Virus record (IMG/VR): IMGVR_UViG_2778261177_000005
Strand: one strand, 5' to 3'
DNA: 43,152 nt
DNA from: a virus
Lineage: Duplodnaviria; Heunggongvirae; Uroviricota; Caudoviricetes
Part shown: positions 1,067-42,581 of the stretch, piece by piece
How the letters are laid out: every line of letters begins with the position of its first letter
Numbering within the stretch: position 1 is the stretch's first letter
Notes under the pieces: model-generated
What the model was told of the DNA's origin: nothing
Seen by the model: only the letters and a program-made list of their open reading frames with translations
Databases searched by the model: none
Program-made: the position numbers and the translations under genes

Positions 1067-1098
1067 TAAAAAGAGACCGAACACGATTCCTGTTTTCG
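1067..1098. repeat. attL: left copy of imperfect 32-bp direct repeat (taaaaagagaccgaacacgattcctgttttcg), host-derived remnant of the sdsR terminator
   Basis: Matches 42550..42581 with 3 mismatches (1073, 1082, 1094); identical 11-bp core acgattcctgt at 1083..1093. Confidence 0.7.
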
Positions 1099-1456
1099 TC
1101 AACAAACTACAAAATCTTTTAGAATTAATGTGTTAAATAAATTTCTGCTCATCTTTTAATCCCTAACACGTACCATTACATATTAATACATTCAATTAGT
1201 TACCATTTTTTTCGAGTTTTTTAGAGAAATTTTCGGGAATATTTCAGGTCAATCCATGCATACACAAGCAATTCCTGTATTGAATAATTCCGTAGCAATT
1301 ATGTAAAATCATCGCCGGCTGATTTTCATTCAAACTCGCGCTATCGAACGTCCATCAGCCAGCCGTGGCACGTTCTTGCATACGACGTGCTACGGTTTCA
1401 TTTATCTCCGACTGGAAACTTCTTATACAAAGTCGATACGCCAACATCATAGATGA

Positions 1457-1591
1457 TCGCTACCTTCAGGCGAGGAACTCCTGATGCAATATAATTTGTG
1501 GCTGGATTATCTGGACGCACTGGAACTGGTCGATACTTCCGGTGCGCCAGATATTGAATGGCCTACGCCTCCGGCAGTTCAGGCCAGATAA
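1457..1591 (+). pseudogene. 3' remnant of a second, inverted tail fibre assembly gene (tfa')
   Basis: Plus-strand frame without a proper 5' part encodes ...MQYNLWLDYLDALELVDTSGAPDIEWPTPPAVQAR*, clearly similar to the C-terminus of the intact Tfa on the other strand (LDYIDAVTATDTSTAPDVIWPELPEA); the two C-termini overlap convergently at 1563..1591. Confidence 0.55.
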
Positions 1592-1973
1592 CATCCGGTG
1601 CGGTGCTGGTATCTGTTGCCGTCACAGCGTCGATATAATCCAGCACAACGTTAAGTCGGGTAGTTTCTTCTTGCGTCAGTTTGCGCCCGGCCTGCAGCTT
1701 TAACTGAATCACGCTGATATTGGCCATTGCTGCGTCTATCAGCGACTGTTTTTTCTGTTCAGCGTCAGCTACCAGTTCATCATGAGAACGTTCCGGAGGG
1801 AGCGGCGCAGTAAATACCCCGTCTGAATACGCCCAGCCGACTCCGGGCTGCTCACTGATATCAGAAATATTAATGAGCTGCAGATTATCCGGCACAGTGA
1901 ATTCATCCTCGCCATCCCAGACAATGACATTCACAACCATCCCATTTTCAATAACTGCATATGACGCATTCAT
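1563..1973 (-). CDS. tfa: tail fibre assembly protein (Tfa / P2 gpG-like)
   Basis: ORF 1563..1997 starts with TTG; ATG at 1973 overlaps the tail fibre stop (TAATG); C-terminal DTSTAPD-x-WPE motif typical of Tfa proteins; directly downstream of the tail fibre gene. Confidence 0.8.
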   Translation of the reverse strand: MNASYAVIENGMVVNVIVWDGEDEFTVPDNLQLINISDISEQPGVGWAYSDGVFTAPLPPERSHDELVADAEQKKQSLIDAAMANISVIQLKLQAGRKLTQEETTRLNVVLDYIDAVTATDTSTAPDVIWPELPEA

Positions 1974-3040
1974 TATGCAAACTCCTCGATAATACAAATC
2001 CCTGCAGCGCCTTTCCCGCCCGTCATACTGGTTCCGCTATAACCGGCATCGTATGCACCACCGCCACCTGAACCATATGCCTTGCCGCTAACACCACCGC
2101 CAGCGCCTGCGCGTCCACCGCCACCCCAGTACGATGTTCCGCCTTCACCGCTGACGCCGATATTTCCGGACTGACCGTCGCCTCCACATCCACCAATGAT
2201 GTTTATATCGCCAGTACTCGGCACACCTCCGTTACCACCGTTTGTGTTTGTGACTCCTGACTTTCCGCCGCCTGCGCCACCAGGAGCAATTAACGATGCG
2301 AATAAGCTATTACCGCCATTGATGCCGTACGTCGCACTAACACCACCGGCCCCACCTGCGCCGATAGTGACTGGATAACTATTCTGTGTCGGGGTCATTA
2401 TTGAAATTATTGTTCCACCGGCCCCACCGCCAGCACCGAAAAACGTTTCATTATTGGATATAGCCTTGCAGCCGCCCCCTCCGCCACCGCCGCCCGTTAT
2501 TGTGACCCTGATCCGTTTTATTCCTGGCGTCGGGGTGTACGTACCTGATGACGTGAAAACCCGGGTATTCACCAAGCGTCCCACGTATCCGTTTGTAGCT
2601 CCCAAACCAAGATAATGAATAACCTCCTGTTTGCTTGTTTTAGCCAGAATATCCCGTCCAACATTAGTCAGGGTTGTCAGGCTGGCTGTATCATTCCCCG
2701 TAAAATACGGTAGTTTGTCTGCCGCAGTGGCAAGGCCTGCCAGTGCGGTCAGTGTGGCGTCAAGCGCCTGGAAATCCTTCCCCAAAGCCGCTTCCATTTT
2801 GGAGATAAACCCGTTCAGGTCACCATCATCAAGCACATCCAGCCCACTTTTATTAGCTGTGTACTGTGCAAGCGCTGCCGTAATAAAGCTGGCCTGTCGA
2901 ATGGCTTTGTTCACCTGCGCACTGGATGCTTTCCCTGCTGTAAATCCGGATAAAAGCGCAGGCAACGCTTCCCATTCCTCCTGCGACATAACATTGGCAT
3001 TTTTACCCGTTGCGAATGCTTTAAAGTCATTTTTTGCCAT
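1973..3040 (-). CDS. stf: side tail fibre protein (P2 gpH-like) with glycine-rich C-terminal half
   Basis: N-terminal region with LPYFTGNDTASLTTLTNVGRDILAK, typical of side tail fibres; Gly-rich C-terminus (GGGGGGGG, GAGGGAGG); start is ambiguous between the coupled ATG at 3040 and the ATG at 3058. Confidence 0.8.
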   Translation of the reverse strand: MAKNDFKAFATGKNANVMSQEEWEALPALLSGFTAGKASSAQVNKAIRQASFITAALAQYTANKSGLDVLDDGDLNGFISKMEAALGKDFQALDATLTALAGLATAADKLPYFTGNDTASLTTLTNVGRDILAKTSKQEVIHYLGLGATNGYVGRLVNTRVFTSSGTYTPTPGIKRIRVTITGGGGGGGGCKAISNNETFFGAGGGAGGTIISIMTPTQNSYPVTIGAGGAGGVSATYGINGGNSLFASLIAPGGAGGGKSGVTNTNGGNGGVPSTGDINIIGGCGGDGQSGNIGVSGEGGTSYWGGGGRAGAGGGVSGKAYGSGGGGAYDAGYSGTSMTGGKGAAGICIIEEFA

Positions 3041-3720
3041 CAGAGTAATACTCCCCATGCCCCTACATCAAAACCACTGATGAATTCGTTATCCATATCA
3101 AAACCAAAAAATTTTGAACCTTCCGATGGGGTTTCCACCGAAGGTGTTTCAATGCCACCCGCCCACACACCGGCGGCTTTTACTGTGAGATATCCCTGTT
3201 TAATTGCAGCAATTAACTCACGCGATACATCTGAAATATCAGTATCAGGAAAGACCCAGACCGATATCGTCATGTCCTGGTTATCGACTATCTGCATTCG
3301 CAGTCCGGATCCTGCTGTTGCAGCGTCAAGAATTGCCGGAAGCGAATCATTCCGTCCGTCCCAGTTATTAATCGCAATCTTCGCTTTAAGAATGACACGA
3401 TAAGTTTCATCGCTGAGATACATGTATCCTGAATCAGGATCATATGGCCCCTGCCATACCCCCTGATCATACCCAAGCCCGTCGGTATCCCAGCTGAAAT
3501 AGACACCTGAGATAAGCTGGCTGACAACACGGCTACGTCCGATCCACAATCCCAGAATGTCAAGTTGCACACCAACCGCAGAGTCAATATCAAATGCAGT
3601 AATCAGCCCTCTGGTGGCAGCCGCAACATCAATAAGCGGCCGGGTCATCAGATCAACATGTGCAAGAAATTTAGGTTTGGTGGCGTGGTAGTTTGTGATT
3701 AGTTCGGTGTATTTGCTCAT
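3040..3720 (-). CDS. baseplate/tail protein, P2 gpI-like (YmfQ/DUF2313-like)
   Basis: 226 aa; ATGA overlap with upstream gene; sits between the gpJ-like and tail fibre genes as in P2-type baseplate modules. Confidence 0.55.
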   Translation of the reverse strand: MSKYTELITNYHATKPKFLAHVDLMTRPLIDVAAATRGLITAFDIDSAVGVQLDILGLWIGRSRVVSQLISGVYFSWDTDGLGYDQGVWQGPYDPDSGYMYLSDETYRVILKAKIAINNWDGRNDSLPAILDAATAGSGLRMQIVDNQDMTISVWVFPDTDISDVSRELIAAIKQGYLTVKAAGVWAGGIETPSVETPSEGSKFFGFDMDNEFISGFDVGAWGVLL

Positions 3721-4916
3721 GACTCCACCGTTATAACGATATTTTCCGGGGTACAGGACGCAGATTCGTTGTATCTGATATCAATGTTTGATGACGACAA
3801 AGCCCCCGGGGATTTACCAATCGTCAGTTCCTGAATATCGTAATAGCGTGCATTCCCGCCACTCACCACGCCAAGATTCGCCGGTGAGTAAATGCGACTT
3901 AAAAGGACCGAATCACCAATCATCAGACTATTGATATAGTCGGAAATAGCCTGCTGGATCTGCTGCCCTATCTGTGAGGTATAACCCGTAAAAACTTTTA
4001 ATTTAATCCGGGCATAAACAGGCACATCACTGGAACGCGAGAATTTGATTACATGGGGATTGCCGTATTTATCCGGAACCGTAACGGATGTTGTACCGTG
4101 AGTGGCTGTCCCCTGGCCTTTATTCCCTCTGATAGCCTGAGCAATATCCGTCACATCACCACCATCCACAATTACAGCAACAGAGTGTGGCGGTAACCCG
4201 TTACCGTCCTCCGAACCAGTATCGTTTTCATAGAGTTTGTGGCGGGTTACACCGGCAACATTAGAAACAGCACCATCCAGTGCTTCAAATGGGGTTATTG
4301 ATGGCAACGCAACACTTTGCGACTGGCGGATACGTAACTCAGCATCAGTTTCTGCTGGAGTACCCACAGTAGCCGCAGCAGGATTGGTTACCGAAACCCA
4401 GCCACGGGTTGGCGTATTAATTTCAGTGATAGTTCCAGCCAGCGCCGCCACTGCACCACTGACGGAACATGTTGCGGTCACCATCACTGTACCATCCACG
4501 CCGACCACCACTGAAGCAGGCAAACGCCATATCACATTATTACTGTCTTTCACGCTGCCATTAATGATGGTTGTTCCGGCAGTTCCTGTAAGAAGCAAAT
4601 CAACCGTAGAGTTCGTCGCGCCTTTACGTGAAATACCATTTATTTTCACGTTACTGGTCAGTGCAGCCCCATAGCCGGTTGCCGGTGAAAAACAGTTGTA
4701 GACAGTTATCGCCGTATTATTGGCATCATGAATCGCCAGCGCCATCAGAGCCACCATCTGGCCGTCTTTACTGTCTGGTTCGAGGTAAGCATCACTGCCA
4801 TAAATCTGCTGAAAATAGCTAATCAGGGTGCTGAGTATCGTCTGATAATCAGGCGCACTGATCCCCTCCGCGGTTACCTTTGCAGATAAACCGAGAGAAT
4901 CAAGGTTCAGAGCCAT
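3717..4916 (-). CDS. baseplate J-like protein (P2 gpJ / Mu gp47-like)
   Basis: 399 aa; translationally coupled to flanking genes; family assigned from position and size. Confidence 0.6.
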   Translation of the reverse strand: MALNLDSLGLSAKVTAEGISAPDYQTILSTLISYFQQIYGSDAYLEPDSKDGQMVALMALAIHDANNTAITVYNCFSPATGYGAALTSNVKINGISRKGATNSTVDLLLTGTAGTTIINGSVKDSNNVIWRLPASVVVGVDGTVMVTATCSVSGAVAALAGTITEINTPTRGWVSVTNPAAATVGTPAETDAELRIRQSQSVALPSITPFEALDGAVSNVAGVTRHKLYENDTGSEDGNGLPPHSVAVIVDGGDVTDIAQAIRGNKGQGTATHGTTSVTVPDKYGNPHVIKFSRSSDVPVYARIKLKVFTGYTSQIGQQIQQAISDYINSLMIGDSVLLSRIYSPANLGVVSGGNARYYDIQELTIGKSPGALSSSNIDIRYNESASCTPENIVITVES

Positions 4917-5269
4917 TACGCCTCCGATGTAACAGTCGTTATTCCATAGAGAGTGTCGATTTCAGCGGAAAACATGACACGTCGGGTCGTGGTATCCACC
5001 GTCGTATTGAAAGAGAGGATTGATTTAACGCCCCGCGTTTCGAGGATGCGCTTACGGATCGCCAGGTTGTAGGTTTCCGGCTTCTGCTTACCGAGTACGG
5101 ACTGGATCCACGGAGTCCCCTCGGTGGTGTCGAGAAACCATTGTCCATACCACAATTCGAATCGCGTTTTTACCGCCTGCGCCACGGCCTCCGGTGAGTT
5201 AATCAGCCAGGTGTCATCACCGCTGCCAAAGGTGTAATCGCCATCGGCGTCTTCACGTCTGTATCGCAT
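4916..5269 (-). CDS. baseplate wedge protein, gpW/gp25-like
   Basis: 117 aa; overlapping start/stop with neighbours; between the gpV-like and gpJ-like genes. Confidence 0.55.
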   Translation of the reverse strand: MRYRREDADGDYTFGSGDDTWLINSPEAVAQAVKTRFELWYGQWFLDTTEGTPWIQSVLGKQKPETYNLAIRKRILETRGVKSILSFNTTVDTTTRRVMFSAEIDTLYGITTVTSEA

Positions 5270-6021
5270 CAGTTTACTCCGTCGGTATTGCCTCCACCGC
5301 GCTGAACACCACCATGAGTGTGCGTATCATCGATTGGCTTGCCGTTAGCCTTCACGCTACCCAAAAACTCAACAGCACCAGTGATTTTTGAAGCCACACC
5401 AGAAGCAACAGACCCCACCATGCCACCCATCCAGGTTAACAGGCCATGAATGGTTACTTTCTCAGAAAAATCAGCCAGAGGGGCAACCACATCAAGACCA
5501 CCCGGAGCGACAATTTTAATTTTCCGGGTATCAGGATTAAGCTCAAAATAGGTGCTGCCGTCGTCACTACGCAACTGTGTGGCACTGGTATTAATACCGC
5601 TAATCTTCCTAGCCTGCGACTGGGGACCGACAATACAAAACGCATCCGATAAATCATGCATTCTGTCATCGACCGGCTCCTGTATCCCGCCACTCTGCCA
5701 CCAGAAATCAATACAACGATCGGCAAAAATCACCAAACATTCATCACCGGCTTTAACTGGAAACGTTAGCGTACAGCCTCCGCCACGCGGGAATACCACT
5801 GGCACATCCACCAGCAATGGGTAATTTTTGGTAATGCGGTTGCCGTCGTTATCAATTTCAACGTAACGGATAGCAGGCTGTACAACCGCCGTCACCGCAT
5901 CAGGAGCGAATGACTGAACAATGCCAGGCAAGGCGACACGGATCTGGTTCTTTGTTGTTTCCCGTTCAGATTTAAATGTTTCGGCAAGGTCACCGCTGCG
6001 GGTCTGGTCAGATACTGCCAT
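5269..6021 (-). CDS. baseplate assembly/spike protein, gpV-like
   Basis: 250 aa; RBS GGAG 9 nt upstream of the ATG at 6021; first gene after the inserted island. Confidence 0.6.
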   Translation of the reverse strand: MAVSDQTRSGDLAETFKSERETTKNQIRVALPGIVQSFAPDAVTAVVQPAIRYVEIDNDGNRITKNYPLLVDVPVVFPRGGGCTLTFPVKAGDECLVIFADRCIDFWWQSGGIQEPVDDRMHDLSDAFCIVGPQSQARKISGINTSATQLRSDDGSTYFELNPDTRKIKIVAPGGLDVVAPLADFSEKVTIHGLLTWMGGMVGSVASGVASKITGAVEFLGSVKANGKPIDDTHTHGGVQRGGGNTDGVN

Positions 6022-6038
6022 TTAGTAGGCTCCAGAAA

Positions 6039-6062
6039 GCAAAAAACCCGCCAAGTGGCGGG
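6039..6062 (-). terminator. intrinsic terminator immediately 3' of the accessory gene pair
   Basis: Minus strand reads CCCGCC-ACTT-GGCGGG followed by UUUUUU; lies between the stop of 6086..6514 and the gpV-like RBS. Confidence 0.7.
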
Positions 6063-6085
6063 TTTGAATTTTGAGAAATTTCAGC

Positions 6086-6514
6086 TTATGCAGTTAACGA
6101 GTCATCACCAATCTTCAGTAATTGATTAACGATTGCATCGACCTCTTCCGCATCCAGAATTACACTTCTCGCGGTAATCCGGTTGATTTTCCGCTCAAGC
6201 TTGTAATCAGAATTAACACGTTGGGCATGCGTCATTTTCAGTTTAACGCCGATTTTCTTTACTGCGTTAACATCAACATCGTTAAGTGCAGCTGCCTCAC
6301 CACTACAAAAGGCCGTATAGACTCGCATGTGAACTCCACCTTTTAGTTTTTCACCATCTTGTGTAGCGGTCGGTACCAGATTGTTGGTGATCCGTAAGGC
6401 GGAATGGTACATACCATAGTATGCTCGGCTAATAGCATTTCTCGTCCACATCTCACCGTTTAGAGCCAGGGAATGCTTAGCCAATTCAAGAAAACAGGTA
6501 TGCTCAACCGACAT
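6086..6514 (-). CDS. HEPN-like helical domain protein (candidate RNase toxin / abortive-infection effector)
   Basis: 142 aa; N-terminal ...EMWTRNAISRAYYGMYHSALRI and C-terminal ...HAQRVNSDYKLER resemble the two conserved helices of classical HEPN domains as I recall them; TAATG coupling to the upstream gene; AT-richer than flanking tail genes by eye. Confidence 0.45.
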   Translation of the reverse strand: MSVEHTCFLELAKHSLALNGEMWTRNAISRAYYGMYHSALRITNNLVPTATQDGEKLKGGVHMRVYTAFCSGEAAALNDVDVNAVKKIGVKLKMTHAQRVNSDYKLERKINRITARSVILDAEEVDAIVNQLLKIGDDSLTA

Positions 6515-7245
6515 TAGAGTTCCCCGGCTTCAAAGCATCCGACGCATTCTGAATCCGCAAGCCCCGCAATAATAATCTCATCAGCCAAGGCATTATTCAT
6601 CTGCGAAAGAAGCACTGGATCGTCTGTTTTGACTTCAACGAACAGCGTATCAAGTTCTGACATTACATAAAAAGCATGAGCGCCAGCAAGACGAGCGCGG
6701 TACTTTTCTGCAACGTTCATCATGAGCCGCCCAATAGTTTTTAGCTCCTGAGCATGATCTTTTTGGGTATGCAGATAATTGAGCGTGTCATACCATTTGC
6801 CCATATCTTCAGGGCGCGGTACTTCCATTGCAGTTAGCATCGGCATCACCTTTTCAAGCAAATCGATATCAACCCAGTATGCAGAAATTGTAGCAACCTC
6901 AGCCAATATCGTTGGATTAAGTGAATCAGATGCTTTCTGAATCATCACATACTGGCGAGCATGCAAACCTAAGTTACGCAGCGCAATCGTATAGTTACAA
7001 AAAGAAACTGGATCGTTAGGCGCTATTCTCAACCCCCGCTCACAGAGTGAACATCCTTCATCTATTTCACCAAGAACAAGCTTAGCTAAGCCTTCAATTG
7101 ATAGCCCCTGATAACGTTCAGGTAGTTTCTTCGCTTCACGAATGATTCGATGGATTTCAAACTCACTCAGAAGGTTTTCACCCTTAGTTAATGAAGGAGT
7201 CAGAAGATCTAACAGTTCTCCTGATTTTGGCTGCGCTAAACTCAT
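6514..7245 (-). CDS. hypothetical protein, predicted all-helical (TPR-like?), partner of the HEPN-like protein
   Basis: 243 aa; RBS AGGA about 10 nt upstream of ATG; preceded by a 149-bp gap; no motif I recognise (no nucleotidyltransferase GS...DxD motif). Confidence 0.6.
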   Translation of the reverse strand: MSLAQPKSGELLDLLTPSLTKGENLLSEFEIHRIIREAKKLPERYQGLSIEGLAKLVLGEIDEGCSLCERGLRIAPNDPVSFCNYTIALRNLGLHARQYVMIQKASDSLNPTILAEVATISAYWVDIDLLEKVMPMLTAMEVPRPEDMGKWYDTLNYLHTQKDHAQELKTIGRLMMNVAEKYRARLAGAHAFYVMSELDTLFVEVKTDDPVLLSQMNNALADEIIIAGLADSECVGCFEAGEL

Positions 7246-7394: not shown

Positions 7395-7736
7395 TCACCC
7401 AGCCACTTTTTTACAAGGGAAAGATCCGATGATTTTCGGCGCATCCATGCTGTTCTGCAGAAGCTGGACATTCAGGAATCGCGTTTCGGTACCAGGGCGA
7501 CGAATGTATTCAAAGCCGTAGTTGTTACCGTCTTTGGCAGGCATAAGCCCCATGTCTACTTTCAAACCATTGGTACCCAGTTCGGTGATTTTTTGAGAGG
7601 TAACTCTTTCACCGTTGATAGTCGATAACTCGCCCTGGTTTGCAACCATAGTGTAGCCACCGCATTTAACCGTGAAGCCATCCGCCCACGCGCTGCACGC
7701 AGAAAAGACAGCTAACAGAAAAATAATACCCCTCAT
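7395..7736 (-). CDS. small secreted/periplasmic protein (signal peptide, 2 Cys in mature part)
   Basis: 113 aa; N-terminus MRGIIFLLAVFSACSAWA-DG is a typical Sec signal peptide with AxA site; RBS AAGGGGA; start 3 nt after the gpD-like stop. Confidence 0.6.
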   Translation of the reverse strand: MRGIIFLLAVFSACSAWADGFTVKCGGYTMVANQGELSTINGERVTSQKITELGTNGLKVDMGLMPAKDGNNYGFEYIRRPGTETRFLNVQLLQNSMDAPKIIGSFPCKKVAG

Positions 7737-7739
7737 TGC

Positions 7740-18696: not shown

Positions 18697-18710
18697 GTGT
18701 TACCTGCGAT

Positions 18711-27753: not shown

Positions 27754-27776
27754 ACAAAAAACCCGCCGAAGCGGGT
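27754..27776 (-). terminator. intrinsic terminator about 70 nt downstream of hok
   Basis: Minus strand ACCCGC-UUCG-GCGGGU followed by UUUUUUGUU. Confidence 0.6.
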
Positions 27777-27845
27777 TAAGTGCGGGTGCGTTGAGGATGC
27801 CTGACACATCAGAGGTGGCGAGGGATTTCTCCCCCGCCGGGTCTC

Positions 27846-29338: not shown

Positions 29339-29339
29339 A

Positions 29340-29558: not shown

Positions 29559-29652
29559 TTATTACCGCCCTTTCGGGCGACCTCCTGATGTTCTGAGGGT
29601 GCAGAAATCCCTCCGGTTAAGGATTAAATTTTATTTACAACACTAAATTTAA

Positions 29653-30849: not shown

Positions 30850-30865
30850 AAGCCCTCCCCAGGAA

Positions 30866-31627: not shown

Positions 31628-31647
31628 AAATTTCCTCCCGGTAAAAA

Positions 31648-32394: not shown

Positions 32395-32400
32395 GGTCTG

Positions 32401-33189: not shown

Positions 33190-33221
33190 TTGTTTTCACC
33201 TTGTAACGCTCGCAGCGTTAC
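32803..33221. repeat. three copies of a 19-bp palindrome GTAACGC-N5-GCGTTAC (32803..32821, 33011..33029, 33203..33221)
   Basis: Read directly: gtaacgccggcagcgttac, gtaacgccgcgagcgttac, gtaacgctcgcagcgttac; two inside the O-like gene, one just upstream of its start; about 200-bp spacing. Confidence 0.7.
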
Positions 33222-33266
33222 ATTTAACTGATACCGAACAAAACAATCCGGCACGATTAATTTCAA

Positions 33267-33689
33267 TCAATGCACTACGACAGAATCACCGGGCGACCCA
33301 CCACCGCTGAAATGTGCTTTCCGGTAAACGGCCTGGACTGCATCATCATGCGCATCAATTGCCGTACTCAACGCTTCCTGCGCCGCCAGTAATGCACGGC
33401 GTTCCAGGGTATCGAAGATGCAGAGTCGGTGACGCAGCTCGCGCGGAAGAATTGCCAGAACCGCAGGGATCAGTGTCTGAATTTTTTCCCTTTGCGCTTT
33501 CGTTTCACCTTTTAACCAACGGTGATAGATGTTCTGCTGATTATTCCAGTCCTTGCCTGGTACCAGGGGCAATTCGCCGCCCCCCTGGCGCAGATATTCT
33601 TCAGTAATTGCATTGGCTACCCACGCCTGCCCTTTTTCGGCTGCCAGGGCTAACAACACTGATTCGATGTGCTCATGCCTGATTTTCAT
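33267..33689 (-). CDS. YdaT-like protein (Rac-type early regulator/toxin family)
   Basis: 140 aa; ATGA overlap with the cro-like gene; length and sequence resemble Rac YdaT as I recall it. Confidence 0.5.
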   Translation of the reverse strand: MKIRHEHIESVLLALAAEKGQAWVANAITEEYLRQGGGELPLVPGKDWNNQQNIYHRWLKGETKAQREKIQTLIPAVLAILPRELRHRLCIFDTLERRALLAAQEALSTAIDAHDDAVQAVYRKAHFSGGGSPGDSVVVH

Positions 33690-33928
33690 GAATCAACCGC
33701 TCCTATGCTGTTTTCGCTATGCTTACCGTCTGGGGGGAATACATCGTCAAGTCCACAATGAGCGCCAAGCCGATTAAGGGTAGAAACAATTTTTCTGCAC
33801 TCCTCTAGTCCAGGGGTACGAAAATTTGCTTCGTAATTTGCCAGTCGGCTTTGTATCCACCCTAACTGAACAGCAAGTTGTCTTTGAGACAGCCCAAGCT
33901 GTTTTCGATATGTTGAAATTTTGTTCAT
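33686..33928 (-). CDS. Cro/YdaS-like HTH regulator
   Basis: 80 aa; HTH YRKQLGLSQRQLAVQLGWIQSRLANYE; strong RBS GGAGG; divergent from the repressor gene. Confidence 0.7.
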   Translation of the reverse strand: MNKISTYRKQLGLSQRQLAVQLGWIQSRLANYEANFRTPGLEECRKIVSTLNRLGAHCGLDDVFPPDGKHSENSIGAVDS

Positions 33929-33952
33929 TGAAAACCTCCGATGACAATTTTA

Positions 33953-34013
33953 AACACACCTTGTGTTATATGGTCAAGCTGTTTTGTGTTTTATGTAAAT
34001 CACGATTCGTGAT
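33953..34013. promoter_or_regulatory. divergent promoter/operator region between the cro-like and repressor genes
   Basis: Palindromes aacac-acctt-gtgtt (33953..33967) and atcac-gattc-gtgat (33999..34013); candidate -35/-10 elements on both strands. Confidence 0.6.
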
Positions 34014-34024
34014 ACAAGGATGCA

Positions 34025-34444
34025 ATGGAAAAAGAAAACGAAAAAATTGCCGCTAGTAGGCTCAATGACAAAATTGCAATGCGTCTTAAAGAGCGCAGGC
34101 AGAAGCTTGGTTTATCTCAAGGAAAACTTGCTGAAATCTGCGGATGGACGCAATCGCGTATAGGTAACTATGAGGCGGGCAGCAGAAATGTTGGAGTGCA
34201 TGACGCTGTCGTATTGGGAAAGGCACTTGGCATATCTCCTCCTGAGCTCCTCTTTGGAGAACAGGAATCTTCTGAATTGTGGTTAAATGAATCCCAACGA
34301 AAACTTCTTGAGTTGTTTAACCAGCTACCGGGCTCAGAACAACAACGAATGATTGAGCTATTTGAAGTCCGGCTAAAAGAAATCGATGAGTATGTAGAAA
34401 AATATTTGAGAGGCAGGCTTAAAGATAATCCCCCACCGGAGTAA
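34025..34444 (+). CDS. prophage repressor, HTH XRE-family (RacR/CI-like, no peptidase domain)
   Basis: 139 aa; HTH RQKLGLSQGKLAEICGWTQSRIGNYEAG; RBS AAGGA; divergent from the cro-like gene; followed by a terminator. Confidence 0.75.
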   Translation: MEKENEKIAASRLNDKIAMRLKERRQKLGLSQGKLAEICGWTQSRIGNYEAGSRNVGVHDAVVLGKALGISPPELLFGEQESSELWLNESQRKLLELFNQLPGSEQQRMIELFEVRLKEIDEYVEKYLRGRLKDNPPPE

Positions 34445-35122: not shown

Positions 35123-35517
35123 CGGAATACCTTATTACTGGTTGTGTGAGAACTCCAGTATACCACCGAGCCTGAAGTGGTAAAAAGACAGGCGCACAAC
35201 ACGAAGGCGCATTTCCGGTATTCATAAAGAGTCGGTCTTGTCTGTTAAATTTAAATGGTGGGAGTGCGCCTCCGGTTGTAAATAACGACATTGCTATGTG
35301 TAGTCTTTGGCGGCATAAGTTCTACTCCGTGGCTGCCCTGCCACCCCTTTTTAAAGTGAATTTTGTGATGCGGTGAATGCGGCTAAGCGCACGCGGCACA
35401 GTTAAAAGCATCAGTGTTATGGGTGGATTATCCGGCGTTAATTGTTAACTGGTTAACGTCACCTGGAGGCACCAGGCACCGCATCGACAAAATTCATTTG
35501 TAAAAATGGAGATAATT

Positions 35518-35739
35518 ATGATTGCTCATCACTTCGGAACTGATGAAATACCACGTCAGTGTGTGACCCCTGGCGATTATGTTCTTCATGAAGGTCGGAC
35601 ATATATCGCCTCGGCAAACAATATTAAAAAGCGAAAACTTTATATTCGTAGCCTGACTACAAAAACATGCATTTCTGACTGCATGATTAGAGTCTTCCTC
35701 GGTCGTGATGGTTTACCTGTAAAGGCGGAGTCATGGTAA
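35518..35739 (+). CDS. KilR-like small protein (putative cell-division inhibitor)
   Basis: ORF 35506..35739; ATG at 35518 with RBS GGAG; 73 aa, the length of Rac KilR; Rac-like gene order (kilR-ydaE-racC-recE-recT). Confidence 0.45.
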
Positions 35740-35912
35740 TGACTAAGAAAATAAAATGTGCTTATCACCTTTGCAATAAAGAAATTGAAGAAAGCAAAAT
35801 CATTACAAGACCACTTCATTTCATGCGTGGAGTTATACCAACGACGGAAATGAAAAAATATTGTAGTGAAATCTGTGCCGAAAAAGACCAGATGGCACAC
35901 GAACTTTAATTA
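35739..35912 (+). CDS. YdaE-like small zinc-binding protein
   Basis: 57-aa ORF not in the supplied track (below 60 aa), translated by hand; TAATG coupling to the KilR-like gene; CAYHLC...CSEIC Cys pairs. Confidence 0.4.
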
Positions 35913-35983
35913 ACTGACTATCCGAAACTGAATTTATGCCAGCAATGGCAGGGATTCGCTCAACCTTAATTAAGGAGAAAAAC

Positions 35984-36229
35984 ATGATTACCAGTTATGA
36001 AGCCACTGTTGTTACTACTGATGACATTGTTCACGAAGTTACCCTGGAAGGAAAGCGTATTGGCTACGTGATTAAGACAGAAAATAAAGAAACCCCATTC
36101 ACTGTGGTTGATATCGACGGTCCATCAGGCAACGTTAAAACACTTAACGATGGTGTTAAAAAAATGTGTCTGGTGCACATAGGAAAGAATCTGCCCGCAG
36201 AAAAAAAGCCGAATTTCTGGCAACTCTGA
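35984..36229 (+). CDS. small hypothetical protein (RacC position)
   Basis: ORF 35936..36229; ATG at 35984 has strong RBS AAGGAG; 81 aa. Confidence 0.4.
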   Translation: MITSYEATVVTTDDIVHEVTLEGKRIGYVIKTENKETPFTVVDIDGPSGNVKTLNDGVKKMCLVHIGKNLPAEKKPNFWQL

Positions 36230-36357: not shown

Positions 36358-39300
36358 ATGAGCACCGATAAACAAGTTTACCCACTGTATTACGAAGCAA
36401 AAAATGACAAAGTAAGAAAACGTCTCGGTATTAAAGGCGGTTTCTACTGGGCTGAAGCGAAAAAATTATCCATTGCCATCTCCCGTGGTGCTGTTGCGAT
36501 TGACGATGCTGGCTACGATGAAGATGACTTTAAAAAACCTGTTCGCGTCAATTTGCCCGTTGTTGATGACCTTCCACCAGAAGGCGTATTTGATACGGAA
36601 TTCTGCAACCGTTACGAAAAAGGCGGGGAAGATGGCATCACAATGGTATTTATCGCGCCCTCATCCTCTGCGCAGGACAAACCAGCCAGCACTGACAATA
36701 CCAATGTTAATGGCGAAGACATGACGGAGATTGAGGAGAATATGCTACTCCCGATTTCCGGTCAGGAGCTGCCCATTCGCTGGCTTGCTCAACACGGCAG
36801 CGAAAAACCGGTAACGCACGTTTCACGCGACGAACTACAGGCATTACACATTGCACGAGCTGAAGAACTACCAGCTGTTACTGCCCTGGCTGTTTCCCAC
36901 AAAACCAGCCTGCTCGACCCGCTGGAAATTCGCGATCTCCACAAACTGGTGCGTGATACTGACAGAGTTTTCCCTAATCCAGGCAATTCAAGCCTGGGGC
37001 TGATGACTGCTTTTTTCGAAGCATACCTGGACGCAGACTACACCGATCGCGGTCTGCTGACAAAAGAGTGGATGAAAGGAAATCGTGTTTCATGCATCAC
37101 GCGCACGGCTTCCGGCGCTAATGCTGGCGGCGGGAACCTCACCGATCGCGGCGAAGGTTTCGTTCACGATCTGACGTCACTGGCGCGCGACGTAGCGACT
37201 GGCGTACTGGCTCGTTCAATGGACGTGGACATTTATAACCTTCATCCGGCACACGCTAAACGTGTCGAGGAAATTATCGCTGAAAATAAACCGCCCTTTT
37301 CTGTTTTCCGCGACAAATTCATCACCATGCCTGGCGGGCTGGATTATTCCCGCGCCATCGTGGTTGCGTCCGTAAAAGAAGCACCAATTGGGATCGAGGT
37401 TATCCCCGCACACGTCACTGAATATCTTAACAAAGTTCTGACTGAAACTGATCATGCCAACCCTGATCCAGAAATCGTGGATATTGCCTGCGGTCGTTCC
37501 TCTGCCCCGATGCCGCAGCGTGTAACAGAAGAAGAAAAACAGGATGATGAAGAAAAACTGCAACCATCTTGCGCAATGGCAGATGAACAGGCAACGGCTG
37601 AAACAGTGGAACCGGATGCAACTGAACATCATCAGGACACGCAGCCGCTGGATGCTCAGTCACAGGTAAATTCTGTTGATGCGAAATATCAGAAACTGCG
37701 GGCAGAACTCTATGAAGCCCGGAAAAACATTCCGCCCAAAAATCCTGTCGATGCAGACAAATTACTGGCTGCCTCTCGCGGAGAATTTGTTGAAGGGATT
37801 AGCGACCCGAATGATCCGAAATGGGTTAAGGGGATCCAGACCCGCGATTCTGTGTACCAGAATCAGCCAGAAACGGAACAGAACGACCCAAATACGCAAC
37901 AAAACGAGCCAGAAACGAAACAGCCTGAGCCAGTAGTGCAACAACAGGAAACGGAGAAAGTTTGCACCGCCTGCGGTAAGGCTGGCGGCGGCAACTGTCC
38001 TGACTGTGGCGCGGTGATGGGCGACGCAACGTATCAGAAAACCTTTAATGAAGAAAATCAGAATGAATATCAGGAAAAAGGTCTGGAGGAAATGGAAGGT
38101 GCTGAACATCCGCACAAGGAGAACGCTGGCAGCAATCCGCATTGCGATTGCAGTGATGAAGCTGGTGAAACGACAGCACCTGTAGTAACTGAAATCATGT
38201 GGCCGTCATATTTCGAGCCTGGCCGCTATGAAAACCTCCCGAACGAGGTTTATCACTCCGCCAACGGAATAAGCAGCACAATGCTGAAGGATGCCCGCAT
38301 CAGCCTGATGTATTACCACGGACGGCACATTGCCGGAACTATTCCGGGCGAGGAAAGTGATGCATTGCTGCGTGGGCGGATTATTCACAGTTATGTTCTG
38401 GAAACGGATAAATTCGCTGATGAGTATGCCATTCCGGTACCGGTTCCTGAATATGTGGTTACTACTTCTAACGAACTGATCGCCATCATTAAAAAACACA
38501 ATGCCAGTCTGCCAGCACTGATGACACCAGAGCAGATGAAAGAGTGGATCGAAAGCTACAACAGCACTCTTATACAGCCACTGTCGGTAAGTGCCGGGGC
38601 CGAAGAAACAGGCATCCTTTACGGTTCGCTTCCGGAGGAATTCCGGCGTATTCCTGAGGGGGAAAAACACACAGCATCAGCAATGAAAGCCTGTATTAAA
38701 GAATACAACGCAAGCCTCCCTCCTCTGCTGAAAGCCAGTGGAACACGAGAGCAGCTCCTGGAGCAAATTGAAACTGTAGATCCAGAACTGGCAAAAAAAG
38801 AACGTGCTAAATCTTTGCCTTACAACATCAGTGGCACAAAAGAGCAATTAACCGAAATCGCCCGGAAAATTCGCCCGGAACTGGTAACACTGGAGGACTG
38901 GCAAAAACGCCAGCAAGAAGAACACGCCGGGAAAACGTTTATCAGTCCGGATATGTATGAACAGGCAAAAAATATTCACGCAGCACTGCAAAACAATACT
39001 GATGCAGCAAGGCTACTCAACCACCCGGATCGCAAATCTGAAATCAGCTATTTCGGGTTTGATGAAGAAACCGGGCTGGAAATCAGGGTCCGTCCTGATA
39101 TCGAAATCCGGCTGCCATACGAAAGCATTTGCGCCGACGTGAAGTCAGTCAGCCTCGGTTATGTGCGACAGGAACGACTGAAAGATCGCCTGCACCGTGA
39201 AATTATTGAACGTGATTATCACCTCAGCGCAGCAATGTATTGCGATGTGGCAAACCTGGACAAATTTTTCTGGATCTTCGTCAACAAAGATGCTGGCTAT

Positions 39301-39486
39301 CACTGGGTGGCCGTCGTGGAAGCCTCGCAGGAACTCCTGGAACTTGGTCGACAGGAATATCGCCGGACACTACGACAGATAAACGAAGCTCTGGAGACAA
39401 ACAACTGGCCAGCACCGATTACCGAAAGTTATACCGACGAATTAAACGACTTTGATCTTCGTCGTCTTGAAGCACTGAGCATCTGA
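36358..39486 (+). CDS. exodeoxyribonuclease VIII-like recombination exonuclease (RecE-like), enlarged
   Basis: 1042 aa; central region (...[40 protein letters not shown]...) resembles Rac RecE as I recall it; zinc-ribbon [16 protein letters not shown]; divergent N- and C-terminal parts. Confidence 0.7.
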
Positions 39487-39497
39487 GGAAGGACACA

Positions 39498-40550
39498 ATG
39501 AACGAATTAACTCAACAAGAAAATATTAACTCTAATGTTGCGGTTTTCAGCCCTCAGTCCCTGGCTGCAATTCAGACATTTTCCCAGGTAATGGCTTCCG
39601 GCATGGCTACTGTACCGGAACACCTCCGGGGAAATCCATCAGACTGCATGGCCATCACCATGCAGGCGATGCAGTGGCAAATGAACCCTTACGCAGTAGC
39701 TCAGAAAACTTTCGTTGTGAATGGTGTGCTCGGATATGAAGCGCAACTGGTTAATGCCGTAATCAGTACTCGTGGGCCGCTAACCGGGCGTATTGAATAT
39801 GACTGGTTCGGGCCGTGGGAAAAAATTATCGGGAAATTTGAAATCAGGAAGAACGACAAGGGGAAAGAATATCGTGTACCTGGCTGGAAGCTGGCCGATG
39901 AAAACGGGATCGGAGTTCGCGTCCAGGCAACACTACGCGGAGAGAGCAAGCCACGCGTACTGGAGTTACTTCTGGCGCAGGCCAGAACACGTAACTCAAC
40001 GTTATGGGCCGATGATCCTCGCCAGCAGCTTGCCTATCTGGCACTGAAACGCTGGGCGCGCCTTTATTGCCCTGAAGTGATTCTTGGAGTGTACACCCGG
40101 GACGAACTGGACGAACCACAGGAAAAAATCATTAATCCGGTTCAGGAATATAAAAATACATCCGCCTGCCGTGCGGAACGTGAAACAACAATTATTGAGC
40201 AGGATGCCGGGGAAAACTGGATCAGTGCTTTCCGTGAACGTATTGAGCAGGCACAAAGCACCGGAGAAACAACAGCACTTCGCCAGGAAGTGGAAGATCA
40301 TAAAAATACACTTGGCGCTCTCTACACAGAACTTAAAGGAAAAGTGGTTCAGCGTCATCACCGTCTCAATGCTATTGCCCGTATTGAGAAGATGATAAAT
40401 GACCTGCCTTCATCAGGTGATCCAGAAGCAGAACTAAAATTTATTGCTCTGGAAAATACGCTGAATGCTGCACGACCACATCTGGGAGAATTATATGAGG
40501 CGTATAAAACGACACTGACAGATATGAAACCAGAATATATCGGCTCCTGA
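39498..40550 (+). CDS. single-strand annealing recombinase (RecT-like partner of the RecE-like exonuclease)
   Basis: 350 aa; RBS GAGGAAGGA; immediately downstream of the exonuclease gene; family assigned by position. Confidence 0.5.
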   Translation: MNELTQQENINSNVAVFSPQSLAAIQTFSQVMASGMATVPEHLRGNPSDCMAITMQAMQWQMNPYAVAQKTFVVNGVLGYEAQLVNAVISTRGPLTGRIEYDWFGPWEKIIGKFEIRKNDKGKEYRVPGWKLADENGIGVRVQATLRGESKPRVLELLLAQARTRNSTLWADDPRQQLAYLALKRWARLYCPEVILGVYTRDELDEPQEKIINPVQEYKNTSACRAERETTIIEQDAGENWISAFRERIEQAQSTGETTALRQEVEDHKNTLGALYTELKGKVVQRHHRLNAIARIEKMINDLPSSGDPEAELKFIALENTLNAARPHLGELYEAYKTTLTDMKPEYIGS

Positions 40551-40613
40551 TATTTACTATGGCGGTGTAGCCTCACCGCCATAACAAAACTTTATTTTAT
40601 GAGAGAAAAGACA

Positions 40614-40808
40614 ATGCGGTATGAAAAAGTCAAACCATGTCCGTTTTGTGGTTGTCCATCAGTAACGGTGAAAGCCATTTCAGGATATTATCGCGCAAAG
40701 TGTAACGGATGCGAATCCCGAACCGGCTATAGTGGAAGTGAAAAAGAAGCACTCGAAAGATGGAATAAACGAACTACTGGAAATAATAATGGAGGTGTTC
40801 ATGTATAA
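40614..40808 (+). CDS. Lar-family restriction alleviation protein (RalR-like)
   Basis: ORF 40599..40808; ATG at 40614 gives 64 aa with CPFCG...CNGC zinc-ribbon; position after recT as in Rac. Confidence 0.55.
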   Translation: MRYEKVKPCPFCGCPSVTVKAISGYYRAKCNGCESRTGYSGSEKEALERWNKRTTGNNNGGVHV

Positions 40809-40989
40809 AATTACTGCCACTATTGAAAAGGAAGGTGGCACTCCTACTAACTGGACAAGATATTCAAAATCTAAATTAACGAAATCAGAATGCGAAAAAA
40901 TGCTCTCAGGGAAAAAAGAAGCAGGCGTGTCCAGAGAGCAGAAAGTAAAGCTGATAAATTTTAATTGCGAGAAACTTCTGTCCTCGTGA
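40801..40989 (+). CDS. small hypothetical protein
   Basis: ORF 40732..40989; ATG at 40801 has RBS GGAGG; 62 aa. Confidence 0.4.
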   Translation: MYKITATIEKEGGTPTNWTRYSKSKLTKSECEKMLSGKKEAGVSREQKVKLINFNCEKLLSS

Positions 40990-41095
40990 GCTGCATTATA
41001 TACAAATTAGAACTTCATAGCTGATTATTAAAAATCAACCACACCCGCCAGTATTCTGTATATTTACTGGCGGTCATATCGTAAGAGGTATGGCA

Positions 41096-41377
41096 ATGAA
41101 TCTTGTGACACTCAAAACGTGGGGAAAACTCAGATATCCGGATAACCCACCATCAATATCAACGCTGAGACGATGGGCAAGGAATGGAAACATTTATCCT
41201 GCACCTGAACTACACGGGAGGAGTTACAGGGTGGTTCCGGAGGCTTTCTATATCAACCCAAATAAGGTTGATACCGATATAACACACCATCAGCCTAATG
41301 GGCGACAAGGGAGAGACAGTCCGTTACTGGAGAAATTAAAACATGCAGCGGAAAAAATACGATCCCAATTTGCCTAA
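41096..41377 (+). CDS. xis: excisionase (Xis)
   Basis: ORF 41090..41377; second ATG (41096) has better spacing to RBS AAGAGGT; 93 aa; immediately upstream of and overlapping int. Confidence 0.7.
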   Translation: MNLVTLKTWGKLRYPDNPPSISTLRRWARNGNIYPAPELHGRSYRVVPEAFYINPNKVDTDITHHQPNGRQGRDSPLLEKLKHAAEKIRSQFA

Positions 41378-42419
41378 AAACTTAACATATCGAAGGAGGG
41401 ACAAAGCATATTACTGGCGCAACCCTCTGACGAAAGAAGAATTTACACTAGGTAAAATTTCAAGAAGAGATGCAGTAGCGCAGGCAATTGAAGCAAATCA
41501 TTATATATACAAAAACTACTCTCCTGCTGCCTTAATTGAAAAGCTTAAAGGGTTCGACTCATTTACTATGGCAGACTGGATTGAACGTTACAAAACGATT
41601 CTTATAAGGAGAAAAGTGTCCAGAAATACTTATAAAATCCGGGTAAATCAACTGGAGACAATAAAAGAAAAATTGGGAGAGATTTTACTGACAGAAATAA
41701 CCACTCGCCATATTGCCGAATTTCTTGATTTGTGGATTGAAGGAGGGAAAAACACAATGGCAGGATCAATGCGTTCTGTGTTGTCTGATATGTTTCGCGA
41801 GGCCATTGTTGAAGGACGTATATCTCAAAATCCAGTAACGCCAACAAGAGCACCGAAAATAGTAGTTACAAGAGAACGACTGAAACTAAAGACATACAAC
41901 TGCATCAGGGAGGCAGCAGATCAACTTCCGGCATGGTTCCCATTAGCTATGGATTTAGCCCTTGTAACAGGACAACGTCGCGAAGACATAACGAATATGC
42001 GGTTCAGTGATATTTATGATGATCGTCTCCACATCAGGCAAATTAAGACAGGAATGATGATTGCTATCCCCCTGTCACTCAGCCTTCCTGTCGCTGGTCT
42101 ACGGCTTGGTACAGTAGTTGAACGGTGCCGCCTGGTAAGCCGGGGAGATTATCTAATCAGTGCCGGGATTAGAAAAAACAGCCCTGACGGCAGCATTCAC
42201 CCGGATGGCCTGACAAAAAAATTTGTCGCAGCCAGAAAATTAACAGGTATCCAGTTCAGTGAAAACCCACCAACTTTTCACGAGATCAGAAGCCTGGCTG
42301 GACGATTGTACAAAGAAACATGTGGAGAAGAATTTGCTCAGCGTCTACTTGGCCACACATCGGAGAAGACAACAAAAATGTATCTTGATGAGAGAGAAAA
42401 AACGTACTTACTGCTCTGA
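41343..42419 (+). CDS. int: tyrosine integrase (lambda Int family)
   Basis: 358 aa; C-terminal catalytic region with ...[11 protein letters not shown]... and ...[13 protein letters not shown]...; xis-int overlap; adjacent to attR. Confidence 0.9.
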
Positions 42420-42549
42420 TTTTAACGTAAATGGATTGTTAAATGTATTTTGGTTGTGATATAACCAAAAAAGACCGGAATACAGAAATTCGAGTAAATT
42501 TCGGGGAATTTCGGGGAGACGCTTGCAACTGATTGATTTTAAATACAAT

Positions 42550-42581
42550 TAAAAAAAGACCGAATACGATTCCTGTATTCG
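42550..42581. repeat. attR: right copy of the 32-bp direct repeat (taaaaaaagaccgaatacgattcctgtattcgg)
   Basis: Matches 1067..1098 with 3 mismatches; forms the 3' terminator hairpin of sdsR. Confidence 0.7.

Follow-up and report, generated by a model that had tools for sequence, protein, structure and literature searches.

Contractile-tailed phages with lambda-like genomes have been on record since 2017, when Salmonella phage SEN34 (Brunovirus SEN34; "temperate 26" lambda cluster; NC_028699) was published as the prototype for a lambda cluster then newly defined, having a lambda-like genome and, by electron microscopy, Myoviridae morphology (PMC5261728). The element considered here, a prophage in a 43,152-nucleotide (nt) stretch of Escherichia coli DNA (IMG/VR virus record IMGVR_UViG_2778261177_000005; this whole stretch is the window, to which all positions refer), shares with SEN34 the int-xis, recombination, kil, helix-turn-helix repressor, cro-like, replication, nin, Q, lysis, and terS-terL functions, an identical order of genes from portal to tfa, a secreted protein of the same 113-amino-acid (aa) type, and cargo in the same slot between the genes for baseplate hub and spike. 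SEN34 differs in that its early genes are of lambda type (exo, bet/RecT-like, and gam) instead of RecE, RacC, YdaE, and KilR, and in having another TerL type, a single 138-aa slot cargo, another integrase, an O-acetyltransferase moron, and another host.

Two other sets of relatives match different parts of the prophage. The late-module DNA is 96 to 98% identical to that of the induced coliphages vB_EcoM-606R2, 611R5, 683R1, and 689R2 (ON470579 and others) over window 2807-6065 and 7404-20891, with lysis genes at 87%; these phages differ in an unrelated early region (DNA polymerase, helicase, TIR-like), another terS-terL, a 170-aa slot open reading frame (ORF), and another fiber tip. Our literature search found nothing on 606R2. 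Conversely, vB_EcoS-666R9 (ON470614) is a complete Rac-type siphovirus (IntR, RecET, trkG, and a lambda-like H-M-L-K-I tail) with ~92% nt identity to the replication, Q, and lysis regions of the window. Together with the Rac prophage of K-12 and with Rac-SA53, it shares ralR/RalA, rcbA, the N-terminal two-thirds of RecE, racC, ydaE, kilR, and ydaT-W with the window, whereas the ttcA integration with IntR/XisR, RacR/YdaS immunity, 269-aa RecT, trkG, and lambda-like siphovirus tail of the Rac type are all missing from it; where 666R9 and K-12 Rac carry H-M-L-K-I, stfR, and tfaR, the window carries sheath and tube genes instead. Module exchange is thereby seen directly, 606R2 having the same late module with an unrelated early region and 666R9 the same early region with a siphovirus tail. 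Such exchange among lambdoid phages has been textbook knowledge since HK97 and HK022.

We read the prophage as one lambdoid temperate phage of ~41.5 kb, with a Rac-type early set carrying swapped alleles and a SEN34/Brunovirus late module, inserted in sdsR, and put the probability of this reading at roughly 88%. An earlier note on this DNA had described a mosaic of four modules from four phage groups. That the genome is a mosaic holds good, and the mosaicism is genuine but of the ordinary lambdoid kind; the four-way picture fails, as head and tail are one module. The real joints are finer and, to judge from where homology breaks off, appear to lie elsewhere. One would fall within recE, and others around the immunity genes and int-xis, between terS-terL and portal, and at the fiber tip and cargo slot; approximate joint positions include 20.8, 23.6, 33.7, 34.6, 38.2, 40.6, and 41.0 kb. 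As SEN34 is already lambdoid with a contractile tail, the architecture was known, and the allele combination of the window makes it an undescribed but unremarkable member.

Prophage ends, integration site, and unity of the element

The 20-nt att core AGACCGAAYACGATTCCTGT is present exactly twice in the window (1074-1093 and 42557-42576); by chance, 0 copies would be expected. Because the two copies lie at those positions, the ends of 1083 and 42576 proposed previously were correct. Host genes flank the insertion (pphA at 277-936 and yebY at 42811-43152), and the window consists of E. coli chromosome and one inserted element. In prophage-free K-12, the gap between pphA and yebY holds only the small RNA pair sdsR/ryeB and ryeA/sraC, and the K-12 alignment of the window runs on the left through 1098 and on the right from 42550, the 32-nt overlap being the attB core. 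Both RNAs are found at full length by Rfam (SdsR_RyeB at 42551-42650, minus strand; SraC_RyeA at 42547-42691, plus strand), and therefore the phage entered the terminator end (3') of sdsR and rebuilt it. No tRNA involvement in the integration was found. According to PMC3333887, citing Balbontin et al. 2008, the sdsR locus is a hot spot where foreign DNA enters and phages attach. The full-length SdsR, rebuilt by the phage-side att copy, carries one C-to-T change; in the terminator stem, a T-A pair thereby replaces a C.A mismatch.

Between these ends, the layout is lambdoid, with int-xis, recombination, immunity, replication, nin, Q, lysis, terminase, head, and contractile tail. Read from int, the map runs int-xis; rcbA, ralR (with RalA), recT, recE, racC, ydaE, and kilR; the divergent repressor and cro-like genes; ydaT, ydaU-like, ydaV, and ydaW-like; a variable nin-like region (hok/sok, NinB-like); Q; ORF6N; holin, endolysin, and Rz/Rz1; terS and terL; portal, Mu F-like, DUF2213, cement, and capsid genes; neck genes; sheath, tube, chaperone, and tape measure; Dit-like, plug, and hub; the 113-aa secreted protein, two cargo genes, spike, sheath initiator, Baseplate_J, DUF2612 wedge, fiber, and fiber assembly. 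It is based on ORFs, the RefSeq annotation of a prophage that occupies this site in strain PEC148 and is 96 to 98% identical, tblastn against reference genomes, and Pfam/PHROGs, and by the same sources the gene content and order listed in the earlier note were essentially correct.

The same evidence bears on whether two adjacent or nested prophage remnants, one a Rac-like cryptic prophage and the other SEN34-like, or else an assembly chimera, could account for the window. It might be argued that K-12 Rac is itself a decayed remnant, that the sdsR locus has been used repeatedly for insertion, and that invertase and alternative fiber genes are gone from one end. Yet the only two att cores are the outermost ones, and the integrase, the lysis cassette, and a full virion gene set are each present once, with no duplicated functions and with a canonical lambdoid order that has no gaps; the size of ~41.5 kb (1074-42576) is also close to the 40.7 kb of SEN34. 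Furthermore, when the two halves of the window were sought in complete E. coli genomes, they were covered to at least 80% in 22 and 19 of them, and at least nine strains are in both lists (PEC148, PEC178, PEC399, FDAARGOS_1289, C25, COL60J, CS6L, CE0021a, and CD45). The composite is collinear and occupies the same site in these nine independently assembled complete genomes, and the two-remnant or assembly reading is accordingly very unlikely.

No deposited phage covers at least 80% of either half of the window or holds its cargo island, so a reference phage with the entire architecture, island included, did not emerge; SEN34 does share the architecture gene for gene, with other cargo in the slot. 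We consider the window to hold a single temperate phage that is probably intact.

The head and tail module

From the portal gene (19336-20802) to the N-terminal part of the fiber gene, the window is collinear with SEN34, at 63 to 96% aa identity and ~100% coverage (tblastn). Sheath-tube DNA of this type is present in 330 of 5,426 complete E. coli genomes, and head and tail form one collinear block in SEN34, 606R2, and these 330 genomes. Searches against Pfam and the sequences of PDB structures matched the sheath, tube, plug, spike, wedge, portal, capsid, and cement set to Pam3, XM1, E217, and phi92; for Pam3, XM1, and E217 the homology is of low identity and is expressed as HMM/phmmer E-values only. 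To our knowledge, Pam3, XM1, and E217 are lytic phages or phages of unrelated hosts and have no lambdoid early region. Since head and tail occur together as one collinear block and both have Pam3/E217/XM1 relatives, there is no joint between them, and by sequence comparison they are one co-inherited module of SEN34 (Brunovirus)/Pam3/XM1/E217 type. The virion would be contractile-tailed, as predicted from the sheath and tube genes and by analogy with the electron microscopy of SEN34.

These results can be set against a chimera of Mu/SPP1-type head, P2/R-pyocin-type tail, Rac early region, and lambda late control, which is how the head and tail had been labeled previously. Such a chimera gains some appeal from the Mu F/SPP1 gp7-like domain in the 257-aa head protein, from the Baseplate_J family that is common to P2 J and Mu gp47, and from a spike with the GpV Apex motif and a match to TIGR01644 phage_P2_V that stays below threshold (31.9 bits against a cut-off of 46.75); moreover, every contractile tail has parts that correspond in function to U, X, D, V, W, J, I, H, and G. 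However, at a tblastn threshold of 1e-3 the head and tail proteins have no match in P2 or Mu beyond a 16% stretch of the fiber. The families differ as well. P2's own proteins belong to Phage_sheath_1, Phage_tube, Phage_P2_GpU, Phage_tail_X, Phage_GPD, Phage_base_V, GPW_gp25, and Tail_P2_I in Pfam, and those of Mu to Portal_Mu, Mu-like_gpT, Tail_tube, DNA_circ_N, Gp44-like, Phage_Mu_Gp45, GP46, and Phage_Mu_Gp48, whereas the sheath, tube, "U," "X," "D," "W," and "I" of the window fall in families other than either set. What the window has in common with both phages is Baseplate_J and, with Mu only, the Mu F domain. Of the Mu/SPP1-type head, this leaves the Mu F-like domain, as the portal and capsid families are not those of Mu; the P2-type tail has to be given up, with Baseplate_J the one Pfam family in common. 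As functional analogies, the U-X-D-V-W-J-I-H-G letters can stand; as statements of family membership, they do not hold.

Gene order points in the same direction. In P2, V W J I H G form an operon that precedes, and stands apart from, FI FII E T U D, and X is found close to the lysis genes; R-pyocins follow the P2 order. Mu has sheath, tube, chaperone, tape measure, gp43, hub, spike, gp46, gp47, gp48, fiber, assembly protein, an inverted alternative pair, and invertase. The window order of sheath, tube, chaperone, tape measure, Dit, plug, hub, spike, wedge, and fiber is that of Mu and of SEN34 and the opposite of P2, whose baseplate and fiber genes precede sheath and tube in separate operons, and "P2/R-pyocin-like order" is therefore wrong. 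The resemblance to Mu extends, in relatives such as PEC148, to the invertible alternative fiber segment and invertase, although the window encodes an integrase and lacks a transposase. With head and tail forming one block that has the same relatives for both parts, the chimera of Mu- and P2-type modules is hardly credible.

At the fiber end, PEC148 has the alternative fiber pair and the invertase gene pinE intact, whereas the window has an invertase remnant and no invertase ORF in its ORF list. Window 1481-1748 corresponds to PEC148 42871-43138 and is inverted relative to its flanks, and the fiber tip is shared by the window with neither PEC148 nor 606R2. As the segment is flipped relative to PEC148 and locked by the deletion, a single fiber tip would be expressed by the window prophage. 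A search for intact inverted crossover sites returned one 18-nt imperfect pair only, and the fiber inversion system is therefore deleted rather than active. This loss and the defense-like cargo described below could be taken to indicate a domesticated tailocin or a defective element kept for its cargo. A tailocin, however, would lack capsid, portal, and terminase genes, and here the head, packaging, lysis, replication, and integration genes are full length against 606R2 and SEN34 (100% coverage), which makes this the least likely of the explanations considered.

Early region, late control, and module exchange

Comparison with K-12 Rac (tblastn, aa identity) identifies ralR (94%), rcbA (96%), racC (92%), ydaE (74%), kilR (94%), ydaT (96%), ydaV (95%), ydaW (93%), and the C-terminal half of ydaU (85%). 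Taken as a block, recE-racC-ydaE-kilR, ralR/RalA, and ydaT-U-V-W are 74 to 96% identical in amino acids and 87 to 93% in nucleotides, RecE contributing residues 58-755 only. These residues are 70% identical to K-12 RecE, against only 29% for the C-terminal nuclease domain; at the nucleotide level, homology ends within recE at 38169 and resumes at 40593 in ralR. RecT (350 aa) belongs to the Pfam RecT family and has no BLASTP match to K-12 RecT. As the break spans both the nuclease domain of recE and recT, the nuclease domain and its RecT partner, both of another lineage, appear to have been exchanged together. The integrase likewise has no match to Rac IntR, and BLASTP of the repressor and the cro-like protein against RacR and YdaS gave no significant match. 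The "Rac-type" early region is a patchwork in its own right, in which int-xis, the RecE nuclease domain with RecT, and the immunity genes are other alleles. A Rac-like early region is confirmed for ralR, rcbA, racC, ydaE, kilR, ydaT, ydaV, and ydaW but not for Int, Xis, RecT, and the RecE nuclease domain; of the racR/ydaS/ydaT-like immunity described in the earlier note, the ydaT part is borne out, and the repressor and the cro-like gene are not those of Rac. The ralR/RalA genes at 40599-40985 constitute a type I toxin-antitoxin system.

The nin-like region that follows the replication genes is variable, and 28296-30422 is not shared with the PEC148 prophage. It includes a hok/sok type I toxin-antitoxin locus at 27846-28171 (Rfam sok at 27996-28171, 106.7 bits, and a 70-aa Hok ORF). 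A 151-aa protein (28973-29428) is matched by the PADLOC models for HNH-type nucleases PtuB and PDC-M01B (best E value 3e-8) with no PtuA nearby, and is probably a stand-alone HNH endonuclease.

The lambda-like Q and R-type endolysin noted previously are confirmed, the former by the DUF1133 and Phage_antitermQ families and the latter by 88% identity to lambda R. Just past the Q stop codon, a promoter-like site at 25849-25820 has 10 of 12 consensus matches; the number of promoters found is no higher than in shuffled sequences. With a terminator-like hairpin at 25758-25742, the site agrees, as sequence matches only, with the PR'/tR' proposed before. Over the same stretch, Rfam reports isrK (25737-25813), c4-a1b1 (25774-25826), and C4 antisense RNA (25628-25711) above gathering score. 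This arrangement with the ORF6N gene is one that we take to resemble the P1 c4-ant (immI) and Gifsy-1 isrK-anrP circuits, and the analogy suggests a circuit of P1 immI/Gifsy-1 IsrK-AnrP type embedded in the late leader. As isrK and C4 occupy the same stretch upstream of ORF6N, the short terminated transcript may have a second role.

Downstream, the holin-endolysin block (~23561-24516) is 87% identical to 606R2 and 91% to 666R9, and it is a plausible crossover site common to both "parent" types. The terS-terL unit (20892-23560) encodes a TerL only 36% identical in amino acids to that of SEN34 and 606R2 and is ~83% identical in nucleotides to Klebsiella prophage-derived phages. Two terS-terL types occur in the SEN34-like lineage, with a Terminase_3/PBSX-type TerL in the window, PEC148, and the Klebsiella phages and the other type in SEN34 and 606R2; the joint at the terL/portal boundary lies at ~20831-20891.

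These data can be placed into a putative life cycle. The lambda-Int-like integrase would insert the phage into the sdsR terminator, and the repressor/cro switch would control divergent early operons. Q, acting at the promoter and terminator just downstream of its own gene, would give one long late transcript of lysis, terminase, head, and tail genes. If late expression depends only on read-through from the Q promoter, late modules could be exchanged whole by recombination between prophages resident in the same cell.

Several points weigh against the reading as one temperate phage of SEN34 type. The deletion of the invertase and alternative fiber genes is some decay at one end. The late promoter and terminator are consensus matches only, and as their site coincides with the IsrK/C4-antirepressor-type module, it might act in that circuit, either alongside a classic PR'/tR' function or in its place. 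The inducibility and activity of the prophage are predictions from its sequence. Finally, 15,887 of ~41,500 bases align to SEN34 by blastn, at 74 to 85% identity (about 78%), which by a rough estimate, not a VIRIDIC value, amounts to ~30% nucleotide similarity over the whole genome and is below the genus criterion, set by the International Committee on Taxonomy of Viruses at ~70%. Features of the window are collected in Table 1.

Table 1. Features of the prophage and its ends in order of position; letters in quotation marks are functional analogies.
Feature	Positions	Strand	Basis
att core copy, pphA side	1074-1093		prophage end beside tail fiber genes
Pin/Gin-type DNA invertase, 3' remnant (~97 nt)	1399-1495	-	window 1-1495 aligns to PEC148 up to last ~97 nt of pinE
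Alternative tail fiber assembly gene, C-terminal fragment (35 codons), invertible-segment relic	1481-1592	+	read from sequence
Tail fiber assembly protein ("G")	1563-1997	-	Pfam Caudo_TAP 4e-22
Tail fiber ("H"), N terminus conserved, tip variable	1973-3058	-	80% aa to SEN34 fiber over N-terminal 42%; Gly_rich_2 domain
Baseplate wedge DUF2612/Phage_Wedge1 ("I")	3040-3720	-	Pfam DUF2612 3e-46; 81% aa to SEN34; not Tail_P2_I
Baseplate wedge Baseplate_J ("J")	3717-4916	-	Pfam; PDB XM1 gp16, phi92 gp145, Pam3 gp22, E217 gp44; Mu gp47 only E 1e-3
Sheath initiator/gp25-like wedge ("W")	4916-5269	-	PHROG 120; Salmonella orthologue PF10934 Sheath_initiator; no GPW_gp25 match
Central spike ("V")	5269-6021	-	PF18352 N-terminal spike domain and GpV Apex motif; PDB E217 gp43, Pam3 gp20, phi92 gp138
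Intrinsic terminator-like hairpin closing cargo cassette	6044-6065	-	9-bp stem, 6 GC pairs, then T run
Cargo gene 2: 142-aa HEPN-fold (UPF0332-like)	6086-6514	-	AlphaFold2 (AF2) pLDDT 91.4; Foldseek
Cargo gene 1: 243-aa TPR-like with small C-terminal alpha/beta domain	6514-7245	-	AF2 pLDDT 90.5; PHROG 22649, function unknown
113-aa secreted/lipoprotein-like protein after hub (STY1065/STY2022 family)	7395-7736	-	signal peptide MRGIIFLLAVFSACSAWA; PHROG 3443
Baseplate hub ("D")	7740-8801	-	PHROG 196 1e-88; weak Pfam E217_GP41; 83% aa to SEN34 hub; not Phage_GPD
Baseplate plug, Pam3 gp18 family ("X")	8804-9106	-	Pfam Pam3_gp18 6e-25; not Phage_tail_X
Dit-like baseplate protein ("U")	9106-9693	-	Pfam Dit_like 7e-34; not Phage_P2_GpU
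Tape measure protein	9693-11699	-	position, weak PhageMin_Tail, 63% aa to SEN34 tape measure
Tail assembly chaperone	11856-12308	-	Pfam Phage_TAC_15
Tail tube	12312-12752	-	Pfam KPP10_Orf10/Phage_Tube_PhiTE; PDB Pam3 tube
Tail sheath	12763-13908	-	Pfam DUF3383/E217_gp31_N 6e-101; PDB XM1 gp6, Pam3 sheath
Neck/head-completion genes (tail terminator, adaptor, Neck1, DUF4054, small ORF)	13912-15971	-	Pfam Phage_tail_terminator_9, DUF4054; PHROGs 222, 939; 69-96% aa to SEN34
Major capsid protein	16013-16954	-	Pfam PF09950 Major_capside 7e-88; PDB Pam3 capsid 8hdt
Capsid cement protein	16966-17472	-	Pfam XM1_gp53/Phage_cement (E217 gp24, Pam3 gp6)
DUF2213 head protein; scaffold or protease by position only	17476-18696	-	Pfam DUF2213; 89% aa to SEN34_5
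Mu F/SPP1 gp7-like head morphogenesis protein (257 aa)	18711-19484	-	Pfam Phage_Mu_F 2e-17
Portal DUF1073/Phage_portal_3	19336-20802	-	Pfam 5e-106; PDB Pam3 and E217 portals
terL 20802-22313 and terS 22171-22920, separately exchanged pair	20802-22920	-	Pfam Terminase_3; PHROG 370 terS
Lysis cassette: holin 24163-24522, endolysin 23683-24159, Rz/Rz1 23144-23699	23144-24522	-	PHROGs 126, 214
ORF6N-domain protein (antirepressor-like), between Q and holin	24994-25575	-	Pfam ORF6N
PR'-like promoter, short terminated leader, C4 RNA	25628-25849	-	consensus matches and Rfam
Q-type late antiterminator DUF1133	25846-26520	-	Pfam DUF1133 1e-107; Phage_antitermQ 26.6 bits against cut-off 26
nin-like region, variable morons: DUF1364, NinB-like, hok/sok, HNH-like, unknowns	26397-30915	-	PHROG 319 NinB; Rfam sok
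Rac-type replication block ydaW-like, ydaV, ydaU-like, ydaT	30866-33689	-	91-93% nt
Immunity pair: cro-like HTH 33686-33928 (minus), repressor 34025-34444 (plus)	33686-34444		PHROG repressor families
kilR, ydaE, racC	35506-36229	+	aa identity to K-12 Rac
recE 36358-39486, recT 39498-40550, joint inside recE	36358-40550	+	identity and nt homology break
ralR toxin, RalA antitoxin small RNA, rcbA	40599-40989		Rfam RalA 222.8 bits
Excisionase and tyrosine integrase, lambda Int-like	41090-42419	+	32% aa to lambda Xis, 39% to lambda Int
att core copy 42557-42576 in reconstituted sdsR/ryeB - ryeA/sraC locus	42547-42691		Rfam and K-12 alignment

The cargo slot between hub and spike

An accessory island had been placed at the junction between "D" and "V," and this stands for the cargo between hub and spike, with one correction. 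The 113-aa gene that follows the hub is 71% identical in amino acids to its SEN34 counterpart and 55% to that of 606R2 and is present in most related loci, and it is therefore not cargo. The true cargo (6086-7245) is a pair of overlapping genes that tblastn finds in neither SEN34 nor 606R2, and the island DNA has no match among 50,697 phage records by sensitive blastn. The pair is present in 33 of the 5,426 E. coli genomes and common in Salmonella, and it occupies the same slot in myovirus prophages of E. coli, Salmonella, Citrobacter, and Pseudocitrobacter. In Klebsiella variicola (L008-L010, 6001-7148), a pair with 40% and 53% aa identity lies instead in a siphovirus tail operon, between a YdaY-like chaperone and a TMP_2 tape measure gene, from which it follows that the pair is a mobile moron that moves between the late operons of unrelated phage types.

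Neither the two cargo proteins nor the 113-aa protein matched anything in Pfam or NCBIfam, and structure models offer more. The 142-aa model has HEPN proteins as its top Foldseek PDB matches (2hsb, 2q00, 1ufb, the sacsin HEPN domain, and the HepT toxin; probability 0.95 to 1.0, TM 0.53 to 0.67), and JGI names several of its homologues UPF0332. Its invariant residues are H96, R99, D103, and Y104 (R-x4-Y); the canonical HEPN RNase motif Rx4-6H is absent, with no histidine 4 to 6 residues after R99. The 243-aa gene always adjoins the HEPN gene in the loci examined, and as Foldseek with its model returned generic TPR proteins only, no specific function follows for this protein. PADLOC gave weak matches only for the cargo proteins, to HEPN_IX (E value 0.009; 142-aa protein) and PDC-M71B (E value 0.037). 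The pair is a moron cassette in a lineage-wide slot, and its predicted function is probably of defense or toxin-antitoxin type.

We surveyed the slot in 45 hub-containing loci (L016-L060; one genome per species, mostly Enterobacterales) and three Salmonella loci. The distance from hub to spike ranged from 86 nt to 5 kb. About 30 loci had cargo, which fell into 33 unrelated families, mostly on the strand of the tail genes, and 11 had none in the interval that begins after the 113-aa gene, or after the hub, and ends at the spike; among the latter, three also lacked the 113-aa gene, seven had only this gene, and one had it ~4.5 kb downstream of the hub. When 26 representative cargo proteins were scanned, PD-Lambda-1 (2.8e-82, T5orf172/MUG113), PDC-S42, PDC-S57, PDC-S02, Mrr_cat, a YafO toxin, and a ClpP-like protein were found. 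With 33 families, known defense genes among them, at one junction, this is a lineage-wide cargo site enriched in defense-type genes. In two surveyed assemblies labeled Chryseobacterium and Bacillus (L022 and L058), tblastn finds 92 to 98% identical (aa) copies of the enterobacterial hub gene, and the E. coli Rac-type early region is matched at 94% identity by the record PP818812.1, "Actinobacillus phage vB_Apl-pPE4"; these public entries are probably contaminated or assigned to the wrong host.

Late-operon morons and phage defense hot spots are established, as indicated by HK97 gp15, Tab, and Rousset 2022, all cited in PMC10884400. Our literature search found no published description of this hub-spike slot. 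A preprint is said to offer a systematic annotation of hot spots. It could tentatively be speculated, though we find it doubtful, that the gap between the 113-aa gene and the spike in SEN34-like prophages is an undescribed, lineage-wide anti-phage hot spot and that the TPR-HEPN pair is a new two-gene defense or abortive-infection cassette moving between unrelated phages. The cargo slot is the only point here that is mildly new, and the TPR-HEPN pair is a modest lead.

As stated, the finding of a mosaic prophage has little at stake, and its main practical value lies in correct annotation, as SEN34/Pam3-type, rather than P2-type, is the proper label for this common enterobacterial prophage type. 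The window also illustrates module exchange cleanly, and its joint within recE keeps the nuclease domain with RecT. The part worth following is the hub-spike slot, which concentrates known defense genes such as PD-Lambda-1 together with uncharacterized candidates.

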